DNA of 6,998 nt, taken from IMG/VR virus record IMGVR_UViG_2740892443_000001; one strand, written 5' to 3'. The translations under genes and the position numbers were made by a program. This stretch comes from a virus (taxonomy: Duplodnaviria; Heunggongvirae; Uroviricota; Caudoviricetes). How positions within the stretch are numbered: the first letter of the stretch is position 1; each line of letters starts with the position of its first letter. A model generated the notes under the pieces. That model saw only the letters and a list, made by a program, of their open reading frames with translations, searched no databases and had not been told where the DNA came from. Below are positions 1-6,998 of the stretch, in pieces.

Positions 1-1164
1 TTACGCCTTCTTTATATCCTCCATAATTCCAGAGTGGGACATATTTGGGACATTATCACCAAAAATGTCGTCTATTTTCCTCGCATGCTCTGTCAAATGA
101 TTAGGCGCAAGGTGAGCATACCTACGAACCATTTCTATGGACTCCCATCCGCCCATTTCCTGAAGCACTGATAATGGGACGCCTGACTGAATCAGCCAGC
201 TTGCCCAGGTGTGTCTGAGGTCATGGAAACGGAAATCTTCAATTCCTGCACGACGACAAGCTGATAGCCATGATGTCTTGCTGTCGATGCGCATCTTCCT
301 GACCGCAGGCGTTGATGTTCCATCTGCTCGCTTAGCCGCCTTGGTATGTACAAACACCCATTTGTGATGCTTGCCTATTTGATCACGCAACACTTTACAG
401 GCGGTATCGTTCAGCGCCACACCAATGGCGCGGTTTGATTTGCTCTCTTCTGGATTCACCCAGGCAACTCGTCGCTGCATGTCGATTTGTTGCCATTCCA
501 GATTTATGATGTTCGACTTTCTCAGACCAGTTGCCAGCGCAAACTTGACGACAGATTTCAGTGGTTCGGGGCACTCATCAATAAGGCGTTTTGCTTCCTC
601 CTTTTCCAGCCATCTGACTCGCTTGTTTCTGACCGCTGGTATCTTGATGACAGGCGCTTTTTCCAGCCACTTCCAGTCGCGTTCTGCAGCACGGAGAATG
701 GCCTTTATCATGGCAAGATGCTTTGCCTTTGTCTGAGTTGATACTGGCTTTGGTTCATAAACAGGCGGTTCTTTACCTTTCCTGATGGCGGCCTGAACTT
801 TCTGTTTCCATATTTCTTTCGTCTTTCTGTTATGCATTCTGCTTACAGCAGAGTAAATCTTTGCCTCCGAGATATCTTTAAGCCTTATACCCTCAAAATG
901 TTCAAGCCAGAACTCAATCCGGCTTTTATCTGAATCGAGAGATTTTTTATCAGCTTTTTCCTCAAGCCATCTTAGGCAGGCCTCTTCAAAAGTGACATCA
1001 GGTAAATCCCCTAGCTTTTCTACTCGCCAGAGTTCTGCTTTTCGCTTGTCGTGCAACTCCTGAGCTTGCCGCTTGTCCTTTGTGCCAAGAGATTCCTTAA
1101 TTCGTTTCCCGCCCGGGAGCGAATACGAGGCATACCATATTTCATTTCTGCGGAAGAGTGACAT
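1..1164 (-). CDS. int: Tyrosine-type phage integrase (lambdoid, e14/Rac-like family)
   Basis: 387-codon ORF on the minus strand, ATG at 1164-1162 and TAA at 3-1. An SD-like GAGG lies 7 nt upstream of the ATG (minus-strand sequence TAACAGAGGAAAGAAA-ATG). The translation carries the C-terminal tyrosine-recombinase signature: [10 protein letters not shown] (HxxR box) and VRRYAHL (catalytic Tyr). Overall sequence matches my recollection of E. coli e14 IntE / Rac IntR-type integrases and is unlike lambda Int; not database-verified. Confidence 0.9.
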
Positions 1165-1391
1165 TTTCTTTCCTCTGTTATGCCATCACCCGCGCTCACC
1201 TGGACAGTATGCAGCGGAGACTGAAGCGCCGCAATGCAGGCTTGCCGTGTTGTGAGGTAAGGAGATTTTGGCTTGGTTGGATCTTTACGTGTTGCCTGTA
1301 GGCGGCCTGTTCGTATCCAGTTGGTGGCGGTTGGTCTGGATATCTTAAGAAACTGACAGGCCTCATCGAGTGTGAGGCTGTATGATTCCAT
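1020..1391 (-). CDS. xis: Excisionase (Xis/AlpA-type HTH protein)
   Basis: ATG at 1391-1389 is preceded on the minus strand by GAGAGAGG with a 5-nt spacer. The translation [31 protein letters not shown] shows the helix-turn-helix typical of Xis/AlpA excisionases. It lies directly upstream of int in the same orientation. The ORF stays open to TAG at 1022-1020, overlapping the int start by about 145 bp in another frame, so the 3' end is uncertain. The upstream ATG at 1439 was not used because it lacks an RBS and would lie inside the plus-strand head-gene ORF. Confidence 0.6.
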
Positions 1392-1414
1392 GGTTACCTC
1401 TCTCAGGAGGGCGA

Positions 1415-1810
1415 ATGACCAAAGAGACTCAATCAACAACTGTTTCAGCCACTGCTTCGCAGGCTGACGTTACTGACGTGGTGCAAGCGACGGAGGGCGA
1501 AAACGCCAGCGCGGCGCAGCCGGACGTGAACGCGCAGATCACCGCTGCGGTTGCGGCAGAAAACAGCCGCATTATGGGGATCCTCAACTGTGAGGAAGCT
1601 CACGGACGCGAAGAACAGGCACGTGTGCTGGCCGAAACCCCCGGTATGACCGTGGAAACGGCCCGCCGCATTCTGGCAGCTGCACCACAGAGTGCACAGG
1701 CGCGCAGTGACACTGCGCTGGATCGTCTGATGCAGGGGGCACCGGCACCACTGGCTGCAGGTAACCCGGCATCTGATGCCGTTAACGATTTGCTGAACAC
1801 ACCAGTGTAA
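1415..1810 (+). CDS. Nu3: Capsid scaffold Nu3 / C-terminal part of the prohead protease C reading frame (lambda-type)
   Basis: ATG 1415 is preceded by AGGAGG (1405-1410); 131 codons run to TAA at 1808-1810, which ends 9 nt before the D start, the arrangement expected for the nested C/Nu3 frame upstream of D in lambda-type head operons. The product is Ala/Gln/Glu-rich and low in complexity, as scaffolds are. The frame is closed by an in-frame TGA at 1373-1375, so the body of protease C is absent. Whether 1415 is the native Nu3 start or an internal Met cannot be settled from the sequence alone; assignment rests on synteny, not on a recalled sequence match. Confidence 0.6.
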   Translation: MTKETQSTTVSATASQADVTDVVQATEGENASAAQPDVNAQITAAVAAENSRIMGILNCEEAHGREEQARVLAETPGMTVETARRILAAAPQSAQARSDTALDRLMQGAPAPLAAGNPASDAVNDLLNTPV

Positions 1811-1819
1811 GGGATGTTT

Positions 1820-2152
1820 ATGACGAGCAAAGAAACCTTTACCCATTACCAGCCGCTGGGCAACAGTGACCCGGCACATACGGCAACCGCGCCCGGCGGA
1901 TTGAGTGCGAAAGCGCCTGCAATGACCCCGCTGATGCTGGACACCTCCACCCGTAAGCTGGTTGCGTGGGATGGCACCACCGACGGTACTGCCGTTGGCA
2001 TTCTGGCGGTTGATGCTGACCAGACCAGCACCACGCTGACGTTCTACAAGTCCGGCACGTTCCGTTATGAGGATGTGCTCTGGCCGGAGGCTGCCAGCGA
2101 CGAGACGAAAAAACGGACCGCGTTTGCCGGAACGGCAATCAGCATCGTTTAA
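1820..2152 (+). CDS. D: Head decoration protein (lambda gpD-like)
   Basis: 110-codon ORF with SD AGGGA (1810-1814) 5 nt upstream of ATG 1820 and TAA at 2150-2152. The translation [43 protein letters not shown]...[36 protein letters not shown] is near-identical to lambda gpD as I recall it. The in-frame ATG at 1814 was rejected because its spacing to the SD is poor. Confidence 0.92.
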
Positions 2153-2170
2153 CCTTACCCTTCATCACTA

Positions 2171-2194
2171 AAGGCCGCCTGTGCGGCTTTTTTT
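2171..2194 (+). terminator. Terminator-like GC hairpin plus T7 run in the D-E intergenic spacer (possible attenuator)
   Basis: Seen directly: GCCGC (2174-2178), loop CTGT, GCGGC (2183-2187), extendable by G-U and A-U pairs at 2171-2173 / 2188-2190, followed by seven T (2188-2194). A second T7 run (2201-2207) lies immediately before the E start codon. Function is not established. Confidence 0.35.
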
Positions 2195-2207
2195 ACGGGA
2201 TTTTTTT

Positions 2208-3083
2208 ATGTCGATGTACACAACCGCCCAGCTGCTGGCGGCAAATGAGCAGAAATTTAAGTTTGATCCGCTGTTTCTGCGTCTCTTTTTCCGTGAGAGC
2301 TATCCCTTTACCACGGAGAAAGTCTATCTCTCACAAATTCCGGGACTGGTAAACATGGCGCTGTACGTTTCGCCGATTGTTTCCGGTGAGGTTATCCGTT
2401 CCCGTGGCGGCTCCACCTCTGAATTTACGCCGGGATATGTCAAACCCAAGCATGAGGTGAATCCGCAGATGACCCTGCGTCGCCTGCCGGATGAAGATCC
2501 GCAGAATCTGGCGGACCCGGCTTACCGCCGCCGTCGCATCATCATGCAGAACATGCGAGACGAAGAGCTGGCCATTGCTCAGGTCGAAGAGATGCAGGCA
2601 GTTTCTGCTGTGCTTAAGGGCAAATACACCATGACCGGTGAAGCCTTCGATCCGGTTGAGGTGGATATGGGCCGCAGTGCGGCGAACAACATCACACAGT
2701 CCGGTGGTACGGAGTGGAGCAAGCGTGACAAGTCCACGTATGACCCGACCGACGATATCGAAGCCTATGCGCTGAACGCCAGCGGCGTGGTGAATATCAT
2801 CGTGTTTGATCCGAAAGGCTGGGCGCTGTTCCGTTCCTTCAAAGCCGTCAAGGAGAAGCTGGATACCCGTCGCGGCTCTCATTCCGAGCTGGAGACAGCG
2901 GTAAAAGACCTGGGCGAAGCGGTGTCCTATAAGGGGATGTATGGCGATACGGCGATCGTCGTGTATTCCGGACAGTACGTGGAAAACGACGTCAAAAAGA
3001 ACTTCCTGCCGGACAACACGATGGTGCTGGGGAACACTCAGGCACGCGGTCTGCGCACCTATCCGGCAGGAAACACTGAATGA
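2208..3083 (+). CDS. E: Major capsid protein (lambda gpE-like), C-terminally truncated at a deletion junction; probably non-functional
   Basis: ATG at 2208 begins MSMYTTAQLLAANEQKFKFDPLFLRLFFRESYPF..., which matches lambda gpE through ...[10 protein letters not shown] (codon 285). The ORF then reads PAGNTE and stops (TGA 3081-3083), giving 291 aa against 341 aa for lambda gpE as I recall it. The GTG at 2181 listed in the ORF track is not the start. The D-to-E spacer of 55 nt matches the lambda arrangement I remember. Confidence 0.85.
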   Translation: MSMYTTAQLLAANEQKFKFDPLFLRLFFRESYPFTTEKVYLSQIPGLVNMALYVSPIVSGEVIRSRGGSTSEFTPGYVKPKHEVNPQMTLRRLPDEDPQNLADPAYRRRRIIMQNMRDEELAIAQVEEMQAVSAVLKGKYTMTGEAFDPVEVDMGRSAANNITQSGGTEWSKRDKSTYDPTDDIEAYALNASGVVNIIVFDPKGWALFRSFKAVKEKLDTRRGSHSELETAVKDLGEAVSYKGMYGDTAIVVYSGQYVENDVKKNFLPDNTMVLGNTQARGLRTYPAGNTE

Positions 3084-3750
3084 ATGCACCCGTGCGGAGC
3101 AGTCGGCCAGCGTGGTGCTCTGGGAAATCGACCTGACAGAGGTCGGTGGAGAACGTTATTTTTTCTGTAATGAGCAGAACGAAAAAGGTGAGCCGGTCAC
3201 CTGGCAGGGGCGACAGTATCAGCCGTATCCCATTCAGGGGAGCGGTTTTGAACTGAATGGCAAAGGCACCAGTACGCGCCCCACGCTGACGGTTTCTAAC
3301 CTGTACGGTATGGTCACCGGGATGGCGGAAGATATGCAGAGTCTGGTCGGCGGAACGGTGGTCCGGCGTAAGGTTTACGCCCGTTTTCTGGATGCGGTGA
3401 ACTTCGTCAACGGAAACAGTGACGCCGATCCGGAGCAGGAGGTGATCAGCCGCTGGCGCATCGAGCAGTGCAGCGAACTGAGCGCGGTCAGTGCCTCTTT
3501 TGTACTGTCCACGCCGACGGAAACGGACGGTGCCGTTTTTCCGGGACGTATCATGCTGGCCAACACCTGCACCTGGACCTATCGCGGTGATGAGTGCGGT
3601 TATAGCGGTCCGGCGGTCGCGGATGAATATGATCAGCCGACGTCCGATATCACGAAGGATAAATGCAGCAAATGCCTGAGCGGCTGTAAGTTTCGCAATA
3701 ACGTCGGCAACTTTGGCGGCTTCCTTTCCATTAACAAACTTTCGCAGTGA
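2941..3750 (+). CDS. L: Tail-tip protein L (lambda gpL-like) lacking its native start; ORF opens from an ATG inside E in a different frame (fusion ORF, likely pseudogene-like)
   Basis: From about 3061 the translation [69 protein letters not shown]...[28 protein letters not shown] matches lambda gpL from residue 4 to its C-terminus, including the Cys cluster; stop TGA at 3748-3750. The native first three codons (MQD) are absent. The only upstream in-frame ATG is 2941, which has an AAGGGG 4 nt upstream and adds about 40 non-native residues translated from the E gene in an alternative frame. Confidence 0.6.
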
Positions 3751-5735
3751 ATCCCATGACAGAGACAGAATCAGCGATTCTGGCGCACGCCCGGCGATGT
3801 GCGCCAGCGGAGTCGTGCGGCTTCGTGGTGAGAACACCGGAGGGGGAAAGATATTTTCCCTGCGTGAATAAGGGACGCTTCCTGAACAACATTAACGCGG
3901 TCAGTAAAACAGACTTTGCTGATAAGCGTGGTATGCGTTATGTGCGGGTTAACGCTCCTGCAGGTGCAACATCTGGAAAATATTACCCTGTTGTTGTTAT
4001 GCGTTCTGCTGGCTCAGTAAGCGAACTGGCATCAAGGGTCATTATCACCACGGCAACGCGAACCGCAGGCGATCCGATGAATAACTGCGAGTTTAACGGA
4101 TTTGTTATGCCTGGTGGCTGGACTGACAGGGGGCGTTATGCTTATGGAATGTTCTGGCAATATCAAAACAATGAACGAGCCATCCACTCAATAATGATGA
4201 GTAATAAGGGCGATGATTTGCGCTCTGTGTTCTATGTTGATGGCGCTGCTTTCCCTGTTTTTGCGTTTATCGAAGATGGCCTGTCAATATCCGCACCTGG
4301 TGCTGATCTCGTTGTTAATGATACGACCTATAAGTTTGGGGCAACAAATCCGGCGACTGAATGTATCGCGGCGGACGTTATCCTTGATTTTAAGAGTGGG
4401 CGTGGTTTTTATGAGTCTCATTCGTTAATCGTTAACGATAACTTGTCGTGCAAAAAACTTTTTGCCACAGACGAAATTGTAGCGCGTGGTGGTAATCAGA
4501 TTCGAATGATAGGTGGGGAGTATGGGGCATTATGGCGTAATGATGGCGCTAAAACTTACCTGCTGCTTACCAATCAAGGTGATGTTTATGGTGGCTGGAA
4601 TACATTAAGACCGTTTGCTATTGATAACGCAACCGGCGAACTGGTTATTGGAACCAAACTGTCCGCAAGTCTGAACGGTAATGCATTAACAGCAACAAAG
4701 CTGCAAACGCCAAGACGGGTTTCTGGTGTTGAGTTTGATGGTTCCAAAGATATTACTTTAACCGCCGCGCATGTGGCTGCTTTTGCCAGAAGGGCAACGG
4801 ATACATATGCCGATGCGGATGGTGGCGTTCCCTGGAATGCCGAATCAGGCGCTTATAATGTCACCCGCTCTGGCGACAGCTATATTCTGGTTAACTTCTA
4901 TACCGGAGTCGGAAGTTGCCGGACCTTGCAGATGAAGGCGCATTACAGAAATGGTGGTCTGTTCTACCGTTCTTCAAGAGACGGTTATGGTTTTGAGGAT
5001 GACTGGGCAGAAGTTTATACCTCGAAAAATCTTCCACCAGAAAGCTACCCAGTCGGCGCACCAATCCCGTGGCCATCAGATACCGTTCCGTCTGGTTATG
5101 CCCTGATGCAGGGGCAGACTTTTGACAAATCTGCTTACCCGAAACTTGCAGCCGCTTATCCGTCAGGCGTGATCCCTGATATGCGTGGCTGGACGATTAA
5201 GGGCAAACCTGCCAGTGGTCGGGCCGTATTGTCTCAGGAACAGGACGGCATTAAATCGCATACCCACAGCGCCAGCGCATCCAGTACAGATTTGGGGACG
5301 AAAACCACATCGTCGTTTGATTACGGCACTAAATCCACGAATAACACTGGTGCGCATACCCATAGTTTAAGTGGCAGCACGAATGCAGCTGGTAATCACA
5401 GCCATAGAGATGGCCGTCGATTTAACCCCAGTGTTTTTAAAGATACTTATCAATATGGTTATACAAGCTCAGGTCAAAATACCTGGGGTGTACAAGGCTC
5501 AGTAGGTATGTCTACGGGGTGGTTAGCGAATACCAGTACAGATGGTAATCATAGCCATTCACTGTCCGGCACAGCAGCATCTGCAGGTGCACACGCGCAT
5601 ACTGTCGGTATTGGTGCTCATACGCACTCCGTTGCGATTGGTTCACATGGACACACCATCACCGTTAACGCTGCTGGTAACGCGGAAAACACCGTCAAAA
5701 ACATCGCATTTAACTATATTGTGAGGCTTGCATAA
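3747..5735 (+). CDS. stf: Chimeric side tail fibre protein: gpK-like N-terminal ~40 aa fused in-frame to a tail-fibre shaft and a lambda Stf-like C-terminal tip
   Basis: One uninterrupted ORF, with GTG at 3747 overlapping the L stop (GTGA) and the first ATG at 3756; stop TAA at 5733-5735. The N-terminus [25 protein letters not shown]... fits the MPN/JAB-type start of lambda tail protein K. The middle part (about 3870-5050) is AT-richer and contains a fibre-type motif ([27 protein letters not shown]). The C-terminus from [48 protein letters not shown] through the HxH repeats to ...[18 protein letters not shown] matches the lambda Stf C-terminal region as I recall it. Confidence 0.8.
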
Positions 5736-6310
5736 TGGCATTCAGAATGAGTGAACAACCACGGACCATAAAAATTTATAATCTGCTGGCCGGAACTAAT
5801 GAATTTATTGGTGAAGGTGACGCATATATTCCGCCTCATACAGGTCTGCCAGCAAACAGTACCGATATTGCACCACCAGATATTCCTGCTGGCTTTGTGG
5901 CTGTTTTCAACAGTGATGAGGCATCGTGGCATCTCGTTGAAGATCATCGGGGTAAAACGGTTTATGACGTGGCTTCCGGCGACGCGTTATTTATTTCTGA
6001 ACTCGGTCCGTTACCGAAAAATGTTACCTGGTTATCGCCGGAAGGGGAGTTTCAGAAGTGGAACGGCACAGCCTGGGTGAAGGATACGGAAGCAGAAAAA
6101 CTGTTCCGGATCCGGGAGGCGGAAGAAACAAAAAACAACCTGATGCAGGTAGCCAGTGAGCATATTGCGCCGCTTCAGGATGCTGCAGATCTGGAAATTG
6201 CAACGGAGGAAGAAATCTCGTTGCTGGAAGCATGGAAAAAGTATCGGGTATTGCTGAACCGTGTTGATACGTCAACTGCACAGGATATTGAATGGCCAGC
6301 ACTGCCGTAG
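5735..6310 (+). CDS. tfa: Tail fibre assembly chaperone (lambda Tfa-like)
   Basis: ATG at 5735-5737 overlaps the stf stop (TAATG), implying translational coupling. The translation [93 protein letters not shown]... matches lambda Tfa as I recall it; stop TAG at 6308-6310. The extreme C-terminus may differ slightly from lambda. Confidence 0.9.
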
Positions 6311-6407
6311 GGTAAAACATATAAATTCTATAATTAGATGTATCTTTCCATTTACGGCAAGGAAGGGGGCTTGGAAGACGTAAAGCATCTCACACCGAGA
6401 TTATTTT

Positions 6408-6998
6408 TTATATGTCAGGTGTCTGAAGTTTTGCTTTGGCTCTTAAAATGGTTTGCCGCGAGGTTTTGAATTCCCGGGCAATGGCACTTATACTTACACC
6501 TGACTTAATTCGTTCGAATACCGCCTGTTTCTGTTCTTCATTTAACACAGGTGGTCGACCAAAACGTTTCCCTGCGCCGCGGGCTCTTACTATCCCGGAA
6601 TGAGTGCGTTCAAGTAAAAGGTCTCGTTCAAATTCAGCGACTGCTGAAATTACTTGCATCATCATTTTTCCTGTTGGACTGGTCAGGTCAATGCCCCCCA
6701 ATGCTAAGCAATGCACTCTGATACCTGTTTCGGTCAGTTGTTCCACTGTTTTCCTGATATCCATTGCATTACAACCAAGGCGATCCAGTTTTGTCACAAT
6801 CAATTGATCACCACATTTCAGGCGAGCAAGCAACCGGTTAAAACCAGGACGCTCACTGGTTGCTGCTGAGCCGCTAATGTGTTCTTCGATTATTTGCTGA
6901 GGTTTGATTTTAAAACCTGCACTTTCGATTTCCCGGCGTTGATTTTCGGTGGTCTGATCCAGCGTTGATATCCGACAGTAAGCAAAAATTTGAGACAT
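6408..6998 (-). CDS. Small serine recombinase (resolvase/invertase family) with C-terminal HTH
   Basis: 196-codon minus-strand ORF with its ATG exactly at 6998-6996 (window edge) and TAA at 6410-6408. The translation shows serine-recombinase hallmarks: N-terminal YCRISTLDQ (catalytic Ser), [46 protein letters not shown], and a C-terminal HTH ([18 protein letters not shown]). It is clearly diverged from the Hin/Gin/Pin/Cin invertase cluster and is not PinE/PinR-like from memory. Confidence 0.85.

Follow-up and report, generated by a model that had tools for sequence, protein, structure and literature searches.

Lambdoid remnants at argU and the EC596 locus

The described elements closest to the locus studied here are DLP12, Rac and Qin, lambdoid phages that have been cut down by internal deletions, and among them the DLP12 prophage of E. 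coli K-12 retains its early, nin, Q and lysis region. The DNA analysed in this work (hereafter the window: 6,998 nucleotides of the IMG/VR virus record IMGVR_UViG_2740892443_000001) is a reduced lambdoid element of the same kind, 100% identical to the chromosome of E. coli EC596, where it lies inside the interval fimZ-argU-intD...appY-ompT. Compared with DLP12 of K-12, the remnant is without the entire early, nin, Q and lysis region and retains instead a series of head and tail operon fragments, namely Nu3, D, E', 'L and the fusion K'::'stf, followed by tfa and pin; in addition, only a few related strains carry its particular set of five deletion junctions. The two elements share an intD-type integrase at argU and, on the far side, a ybcY-like methyltransferase, a tfa fragment, appY and ompT (PMC6379469). 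With Rac it has in common the stf-tfa-pin module, whose intact homologue is named stfR by the NCBI pipeline PGAP. We searched the literature on the decay of DLP12 and the argU site and on phage PhiR68_2, and it yielded reviews and context, and no paper describing the K-fibre junction (junction 3) discussed below.

Two intact relatives define what the element has lost. The 49.7-kb sequence of PhiR68_2 (PV340576.1, from E. coli ECOR13) was submitted as a complete phage genome and has the full lambdoid gene set; it is identical to the window at the integrase end (1,401 of 1,401 nt), matches its tfa-pin end at 99.1% and has the same appY and ompT downstream. The prophage of strain 600468, integrated at the lambda att site, matches the window at 99.8% in C-D-E and at 99.6% in stf-tfa. 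Unlike the window, both encode a complete K protein (247 aa, with JAB and NlpC/P60 domains), I, J and lom, as well as a full side tail fibre of about 1,025-1,132 aa that carries the PF08400 domain.

The left end of the remnant is the intD-type integrase gene (1-1164, minus strand, from the EC596 annotation; 100% identity to positions 68-1468 of PhiR68_2), named intD by PGAP; in EC596 its end is separated by 15 bp from the adjoining tRNA-Arg gene (argU), upstream of fimZ. Directly upstream of the K fragment lies 'L (3061-3750, plus strand), which encodes minor tail protein L without its first three codons, start codon and ribosome-binding site, as placed by the alignment across junction 2; it still scores 338 bits with the Pfam model Phage_tail_L and is annotated by PGAP as a 229-aa protein. 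The complete tfa gene for the tail-fibre assembly chaperone (5735-6310, plus strand; Pfam Caudo_TAP, E=6.8e-43, in agreement with the annotation) has a start that overlaps the stop of the fused ORF, and a complete gene for a Pin-type serine recombinase, or invertase (6408-6998, minus strand, from the annotations of EC596, 2H10 and PhiR68_2), closes the window; intact relatives likewise have pin beside stf-tfa, its native position. The EC596 annotation from intD to appY holds no terminase, portal, tail tube, tape measure, I, J, replication, Q or lysis genes, and the late promoter region is also deleted. Without terminase, portal, tail tube, tape measure, I and J no virion can be built, and therefore the question of whether a fibre could attach to one is moot. 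Consensus sigma-70 promoter-like sites numbered 6 against 7.3 expected, with none just upstream of position 3756.

A K fragment joined in frame to a distal side tail fibre

The fused ORF K'::'stf occupies positions 3756-5735 on the plus strand and, according to the ORF list and BLASTP, encodes 659 aa, 38 derived from K and 621 from the fibre, before the stop. The frame is uninterrupted to 5735 from either a GTG at 3747 or an ATG at 3756. The first-pass annotation, made from the letters of the DNA, had described an in-frame fusion of the K N-terminus to a tail-fibre gene in an ORF beginning at 3747; the fusion stands and the start does not, as the biological start is the ATG of K at 3756, the GTG being merely the first possible one. 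Counted from this ATG, residues 1-38 are identical to the lambda-type tail-tip assembly protein K of PhiR68_2 (38/38, E=2e-23 in BLASTP), so that the K' fragment (3756-3870, plus strand) corresponds to codons 1-38 of K, the N-terminal third of the MPN/JAB domain. At the DNA level, the stretch 3060-3870 shows 98.6% identity to the L-K region of PhiR68_2. The same N-terminal identity decides the alternative proposed along with that annotation, a native fibre N-terminus along residues 1-60: no such alignment was obtained.

From residue 39 onward the product corresponds to residues 512-1132 of a StfR-type side tail fibre, and 'stf (3868-5735, plus strand; Pfam and BLASTP) begins within codon 511 of the parent gene (1,132 codons) and extends to the stop. 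From 3868 the DNA matches an inner stretch of the side-tail-fibre gene in phages 2H10, Kati, ev099 and PhiR34_1 at 100% (333/333), and it is 99.6% identical over 2,434 bp to stfR-tfa of the intact prophage in strain 600468, from whose stfR the fibre part differs in 1 of 621 codons. Against residues 511-1117 of the 2H10 Stf the amino acid identity is 92%. The change of parent is accompanied by the fall in GC content that had been pointed out at the fibre, from 0.56 in L and 0.58 in the K fragment to 0.48 in the fibre part.

Junction 3 itself was placed at 3868-3870 by aligning the window to both of its parents, K and stf, in three-way comparisons, and by the ends of the BLAST segments at 3870 and 3868; it consists of a 3-bp microhomology, ATA. 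This overlap is residue 41/42 when counted from the GTG, and agrees with the breakpoint originally estimated near residue 41 and position 3870. The codon phase of the ATA is the same in both parents (AAT|A in K and GAT|A in stf). Intact relatives have K codons 39-247, I, J, lom and fibre codons 1-511 in the interval between the two breakpoints, which bears out the earlier suggestion that most of K had been lost together with I, J and lom. The missing interval, about 6.9-7.0 kb long, spans 6,921 bp in phage 2H10 and 7,024 bp in the 600468 prophage. The length of the deletion was considered as a sign of design and discarded, as 6,921 is a multiple of 3 and 7,024 is not; the in-frame outcome depends on the codon phase at the two breakpoints alone and has a one-in-three chance.

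A native phage architecture was ruled out for this arrangement, since none of 227 matching phage records covers at least 80% of a 601-bp query spanning the joint. PGAP splits the fused ORF into two partial pseudogenes and flags both halves as incomplete. On the other side, the 659-codon frame is intact and tfa and pin are complete, features that run against reading the ORF as a pseudogene, and judging from the sequence the chimera could be translated.

Domains kept and lost

In full-length K, the JAMM motif is E19...H68-x-H70-x7-S78-xx-D81. The K' fragment ends at N38 and thus retains only the upstream glutamate, E19, and the prediction that the ORF never reaches the histidines of the motif (H68 to D81 in full K) held. 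The fusion gave a sub-threshold match to the Pfam Prok-JAB model (18.3 bits against a cut-off of 25 bits, profile positions 4-53 of 114), while full K scores 53.8 bits with the same model and carries in addition an NlpC/P60 domain at residues 111-224; this C40 peptidase domain is absent from the fusion in the Pfam search. In relation to gpK of lambda, then, the first 38 residues are identical to those of a K orthologue, with the conserved JAMM glutamate included, whereas the fusion lacks the HxHx7Sx2D metal site, the remainder of the JAB fold and all of the NlpC/P60 domain. The K' fragment is predicted to be incapable of working as K.

The fibre half has kept its distal domains and lost the proximal ones. 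Pfam found in 'stf the domains Gp34_trimer (96.7 bits), Collar (46.8) and gp37_C (23.8), together with His-rich Phage_fiber repeats, and the Ala/Ser-rich shaft of the parent fibre is missing. As in Stf of lambda and StfR of Rac, the distal 621 residues carry the receptor-binding end and are followed by the gene for the Tfa chaperone. The parent fibre of 2H10 carries PF08400, the "prophage tail fibre N-terminal" domain, at residues 1-134 (E=8e-71), and the fusion gave no match to this domain; in its place stands the K fragment, a replacement that had already been proposed for the tail-attachment region of the fibre. In Ur-lambda, the fibres are held on the tail by a dodecameric collar, located at the gpV/gpM junction and formed by residues 1-94 of Stf (PMC12617516). 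Lacking the PF08400 N-terminal domain, the product is therefore without the known attachment module. Attachment of such a fibre to a virion would indeed be unlikely, as the first-pass annotation held, although the point loses its object in an element that cannot build a virion. Engineered Stf chimeras represent the reverse case; the fusion described here instead loses the N-terminal tail-binding part.

Origin and distribution of the junction

Junction 3 occurs in five complete records, which represent three strains among 5,426 complete genomes (from a human in China and from lambs in Canada), and the exact 659-aa product is encoded on 94 contigs of other assemblies. Wherever these contigs reach the chromosomal flanks the locus is the same, and where they overlap the window they differ from it at no more than 4 positions. 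The junction is therefore real, and it has been inherited. None of the GTDB species-representative genomes matched the 31-mer of the junction, and on this basis the joint is not an allele widespread across species. The single match of the 31-mer in IMG/VR is a 6,310-bp contig that represents the same chromosomal remnant, with 1 mismatch to the window. The differences in tfa (2 synonymous and 5 non-synonymous) are too few to speak for or against selection and are not assignable to a lineage, and the carriers differ by at most 4 bases.

Taken with the parentage of its two halves, which is unambiguous at the nucleotide level, junction 3 is very probably a deletion scar in a decayed lambdoid prophage, and the fused ORF a young pseudogene. 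In this reading, a lambdoid prophage at argU, the DLP12 site of E. coli, would have undergone a spontaneous internal deletion of about 7 kb that joined the inside of K codon 39 to the inside of side-tail-fibre codon 511 at the ATA identity. An identity of 3 bp would be the signature of short-homology ("illegitimate") recombination, for example by replication slippage or microhomology-mediated end joining, a mechanism that we infer; under random joining, a microhomology of at least 3 bp has p ~0.05 per junction. The joint is seamless, and its two flanks, which have only a few bases in common, correspond colinearly to points far apart in one parental gene order. The two breakpoints fell by chance in the same codon phase, and the 659-codon K'::'Stf frame is the consequence. 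The fused ORF has no late promoter or antiterminator upstream and lies behind an L gene without a start; we infer that it is neither expressed nor functional, and its intactness is most likely due to a recent deletion, as 1 of 621 codons differs from the intact fibre. The K-fibre fusion does not represent a novel type of gene; it is the sort of scar that decaying prophages ordinarily carry.

Degraded prophages show a statistical excess of tail-fibre and integrase genes (PMC7744054), and some authors attribute it to domestication. It could be asked whether the chimera, or the distal fibre with tfa as a cassette, has been kept as something useful, either as a soluble receptor-binding protein that blocks superinfection, the expressed protein masking the surface receptor, or as a silent host-range cassette that incoming lambdoid phages acquire by homologous recombination. 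The enrichment of degraded prophages in fibre genes is in line with this idea, as are the intact ORF of 659 codons with complete tfa and pin beside it and a fibre part virtually identical to a working fibre. We consider it unlikely nonetheless, because the element has lost its late promoter, the antiterminator Q and the beginning of L and shows no more promoter-like sites than chance predicts, while a young deletion, with 1 codon change in 621, accounts for the intactness, an in-frame joint has a prior of one in three, and the junction was found in merely 3 of 5,426 complete genomes. A crossover entering in K' would moreover transfer the lethal deletion, and rescue would therefore use fibre-tfa-pin only, leaving the K fusion irrelevant. 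The more specific proposal that the K'::'Stf chimera is translated and co-opted by the host, as a free trimeric receptor-binding protein folded by Tfa and occupying an outer-membrane receptor or LPS, is very unlikely; if true, the co-opted chimera would shield the cell from phages with the same receptor.

Origins of the joint other than a deletion within one prophage were also weighed. Recombination between two resident prophages, one donating L-K and the other stf-tfa, could be read from the best matches, which for L-K are PhiR68_2 and mEp460 (98.5-98.6%) and for the fibre are 2H10, Kati and strain 600468 (99.6-100%), whose own L-K reach only 97.7-97.8%. Lambdoid genomes are mosaic, however, and differing best matches are to be expected for neighbouring modules; besides, both sides have their genes in the order and orientation of one prophage, running from int to pin at a single att site, and PhiR68_2 matches the element at 99-100% at the int end as well as at the tfa-pin end. 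Since independent projects recovered the identical junction in 5 complete genomes and on 94 contigs, a chimera produced in assembly, the other form of the same idea, is excluded, and an origin from two sources is extremely unlikely as a whole. A complete pin gene 0.7 kb downstream of the fused ORF brings to mind a site-specific or transposon-related event, such as Pin acting on pseudo-crossover sites or an adjacent deletion mediated by an IS, yet the crossover core of the Din family (TCNNAAACCNNGGTTTNNGA, with up to 3 mismatches) is found nowhere in the window, the flanks of the seamless junction match the parents to the base with no IS end or transposase ORF, and 2-6 bp of microhomology accompany all five junctions, including those far from pin. 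Such an event is barely conceivable here.

The deletion reading extends to the rest of the element, which carries five deletions with 2-6 bp of microhomology each; together they would have removed all genes needed for phage production. Junction 1 (1399-1401) connects an excisionase fragment with the 3' third of gene C, and the two overlap by 3 bp. At junction 2 (3060-3062) the capsid gene E is cut after about 285 codons and joined to L codon 3/4 through the 3-bp microhomology TAT, with the removal of 6,456 bp (FI through M), and this junction is common to the same five complete-genome records as junction 3.

Beyond annotation, the significance of these findings is small. Automatic gene callers report a 659-aa "tail fibre" and the remnant is entered as a viral contig in one public collection of viruses, both of which could mislead surveys of prophages or of host range; and when the deletion is young, the length of an open frame is no evidence that a prophage remnant has kept a function. 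The remnant also provides a base-resolved example of a lambdoid prophage whittled by successive short-homology deletions, and its carriers show the order of these deletions. The version found in the lamb strains has four deletions, with microhomologies of 6, 2, 3 and 3 bp, and the fifth deletion of EC596 (1.6 kb, with a 3-bp microhomology) is nested in it; the intermediate allele that persists in the lamb isolates could thus illustrate the order of decay.

The K/side-tail-fibre joint in the prophage remnant at argU

The window corresponds with 100% identity to positions 5402-12399 of locus L001 on the chromosome of E. coli EC596 (NZ_CP156718.1), flanked by fimZ/tRNA-Arg (argU) on one side and appY/ompT on the other, which is the integration site of DLP12. 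The PGAP coordinates of EC596, converted to window positions, place there the intD integrase (1-1164, -), an excisionase fragment (1326-1391, -), a 3' fragment of the S49 protease/scaffold gene C (1400-1810, +), the head decoration gene D (1820-2152, +), the capsid gene E without its 3' end (2208-3062, +), the minor tail gene L (3061-3750, +), a "hypothetical protein, missing C-terminus" (3756-3869, +), a "tail fiber protein, missing N-terminus" (3867-5735, +), tfa (5735-6310, +) and a pin-type recombinase (6408-6998, -). The two partial genes show that the pipeline had already spotted fragments where the first-pass annotation flagged a fusion of K to a fibre gene.

A mechanical ORF list gives a single uninterrupted frame from GTG 3747 to 5735, within which ATG 3756 is the counterpart of the native K start annotated in the intact relative PhiR68_2 (PV340576.1), 5 nt past the L stop. 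Read from this ATG, residues 1-38 are identical to PhiR68_2 K (38/38, E=2e-23) and residues 38-659 align with residues 511-1117 of the 2H10 side tail fibre (1,117 aa) at 92% identity. At the DNA level, 3060-3870 is 98.6% identical to the L-K region of PhiR68_2; from 3868 onwards, the first 333 bp are 100% identical to internal fibre sequence in six phage records, and 2,434 bp are 99.63% identical to stfR-tfa of an intact prophage carried by strain 600468. In a three-way alignment the K match stops at ...GTGAATA and the fibre match starts at ATAAGGG..., only ATA (3868-3870) being common to both parents at the joint. Both parents have AT at codon positions 2-3 and A at position 1, so the reading frame is kept. 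The breakpoint had been put at about 3870 with a drop in GC past it; the two matches indeed overlap there, and GC falls from 0.56-0.58 in L and K' (the K fragment) to 0.48 in the fibre part. All descriptive statements of the first-pass annotation on this joint were borne out, that on the breakpoint included.

What the deletion removed

Full-length K carries a JAMM motif (E19...H68-S-H70-x7-S78-xx-D81) followed by an NlpC/P60 domain. K' ends at N38 and, as had been noted, never reaches the motif histidines at H68 and H70; the fusion scores below threshold against Pfam Prok-JAB (18.3 bits, cut-off 25). In intact relatives, the stretch between the two breakpoints, 6,921 bp long in 2H10 and 7,024 bp long in the 600468 prophage, holds the remainder of K followed by I, J, lom and fibre codons 1-511, which agrees with the predicted loss of most of K and of the I, J and lom equivalents. 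Among what the fibre lost are its N-terminal domain PF08400 (parent residues 1-134, E=8e-71) and the long Ala/Ser-rich shaft, so the claim that a K fragment replaces the tail-attachment region of the fibre also holds. In the Ur-lambda cryo-EM structure, Stf residues 1-94 form a dodecameric collar that anchors four fibres at the gpV/gpM junction (PMC12617516), whereas the fused ORF, arranged the opposite way to engineered Stf chimeras, is without this only known attachment module of the fibre. The fused ORF does not belong to the gpK family, nor is it a complete Stf/StfR fibre, since tests showed that the domains defining these are missing.

Within the fibre part, 3868-5013 has no nucleotide match in the PhiR68_2 fibre, and a His-rich repeat region near the fibre tip (5375-5566) has none in that of 2H10; nonetheless, the whole stretch is 99.6% identical to stfR of strain 600468. 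Judged by these comparisons, the His-rich region is a mosaic cassette. Its HxH repeats belong to the fibre and bear no relation to the JAMM motif of K. Several full-length StfR-type fibres in the 90% protein cluster of the fused ORF are named "short-chain fatty acid transporter" or "tape measure protein" in NCBI records, evidently misannotations.

Stepwise decay and distribution

PhiR68_2, deposited as a complete phage genome (49.7 kb, source ECOR13), matches the window at the integrase end in 1,401/1,401 nt and at the tfa-pin end with 99.1% identity, and is followed by appY and ompT as at the window's locus; it is a good model of the element before decay. Comparison with it defined three joints: xis'/'C (junction 1, 1399-1401, 3 bp shared), E'/'L (junction 2, 3060-3062, TAT shared, 6,456 bp removed) and K'/'stf (junction 3, 3868-3870, ATA shared). 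Among 5,426 complete E. coli genomes, junctions 2 and 3 are confined to one set of five records, which stand for EC596 (from a human in China) and two Canadian lamb isolates each sequenced twice, and junction 1 is found in EC596 only. The lamb allele (strain ECL27977, L005; 16190-17800 there against 1399-1401 in the window) is an older form of the remnant that keeps rzpD, more of gene C and the gene for the bor/iss lipoprotein, and has four deletions with microhomologies of 6, 2, 3 and 3 bp. As the EC596 allele is what remains of the lamb allele once another 1.6 kb is taken out, with flanks 99.98% identical, junctions 2 and 3 are older and junction 1 of EC596 arose later by a deletion nested in the lamb form. 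Microhomology of 2-6 bp is seen at each of the element's five deletion joints; under random joining an overlap of at least 3 bp has a chance of about 0.05 per junction, and that it recurs makes short-homology illegitimate recombination the probable mechanism. Next to the prophage, the fimbrial usher gene sfmD has a frameshift in EC596 as well as in the lamb strain, and envY has an internal stop in EC596 but not in the lamb strain (L001 278-2886 and 17490-18251; same genes in L005), which fits a shared lineage with gene decay going further in EC596.

The exact 659-aa product was found in 94 contigs (NCBI, ENA and Logan assemblies). All fetched places that reach the chromosomal flanks have the same fim...intD...appY/ompT context, both left-end types (EC596 and lamb) are present among the fetched copies, and over the shared part no copy has more than four base differences from the window. 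A 31-mer across the joint was not found in GTDB species representatives, and in IMG/VR it occurred only in one 6.3-kb contig of the same remnant. Therefore, the joint is real and belongs to no known active phage; a small number of E. coli strains inherit it vertically. That contig (IMGVR_UViG_2648501299_000004, 6,310 bp), equal to window 1-6310 with one mismatch, is listed as viral in a public viral-genome collection, and this chromosomal remnant cannot encode a virus.

Status of the fused frame and neighbouring genes

The element belongs among the lambdoid cryptic prophages at argU that have decayed by deletion, and works like them, sharing with the DLP12 type the site, the lambdoid origin and the mode of decay. 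Events of this kind are textbook material, and RefSeq already marks the fragments as pseudogenes; in the literature on DLP12/argU decay and PhiR68_2 we found no paper on this specific K/stf junction. By annotation, the locus keeps nothing that a virion requires, and it has also lost Q, the lysis cassette and the late promoter; promoter-like sites are no commoner than in shuffled sequence. The frame is most likely still open because the deletion is recent, as only 1 of 621 codons differs from the intact prophage fibre. Given this and a prior of one in three for an in-frame joint, we regard the fused ORF, with high confidence, as a young pseudogene. The one alternative that the sequence leaves, an unlikely one, is that the chimera or the fibre-tfa cassette has been co-opted; it has some general support, since fibre and integrase genes are reported to be enriched in degraded prophages (PMC7744054) and lambdoid phages to recombine with prophage remnants (PMC6379469). 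The K fusion itself would have no part in rescue of that kind. Besides the pseudogene, a complete pin-type serine recombinase remains (6408-6998); the pattern searched for turned up no Din-family crossover core in the whole window, and 6311-6407 and 6408-6998 hold no alternative fibre segment. The recombinase has no evident substrate here, nor in the same module of intact relatives.

At junction 2, the deletion took the first three codons, ATG and ribosome-binding site of L, which PGAP annotates as an intact 229-aa protein (WP_034166819.1) starting at ATC and for which other callers choose a 212-aa version; the truncated E frame enters L out of frame for 7 codons and stops at 3083 (3056-3070 spanning the joint). 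An internal ATG (1415), preceded by AGGAGG, lies 14 nt downstream of junction 1, so that the "S49 peptidase fragment" (1399-1810) is an entire ORF of 131 aa, read in the C frame and equipped with a Shine-Dalgarno sequence of its own. Other gene callers also call a 131-aa gene at this place, which looks like the nested scaffold gene Nu3 of lambda.
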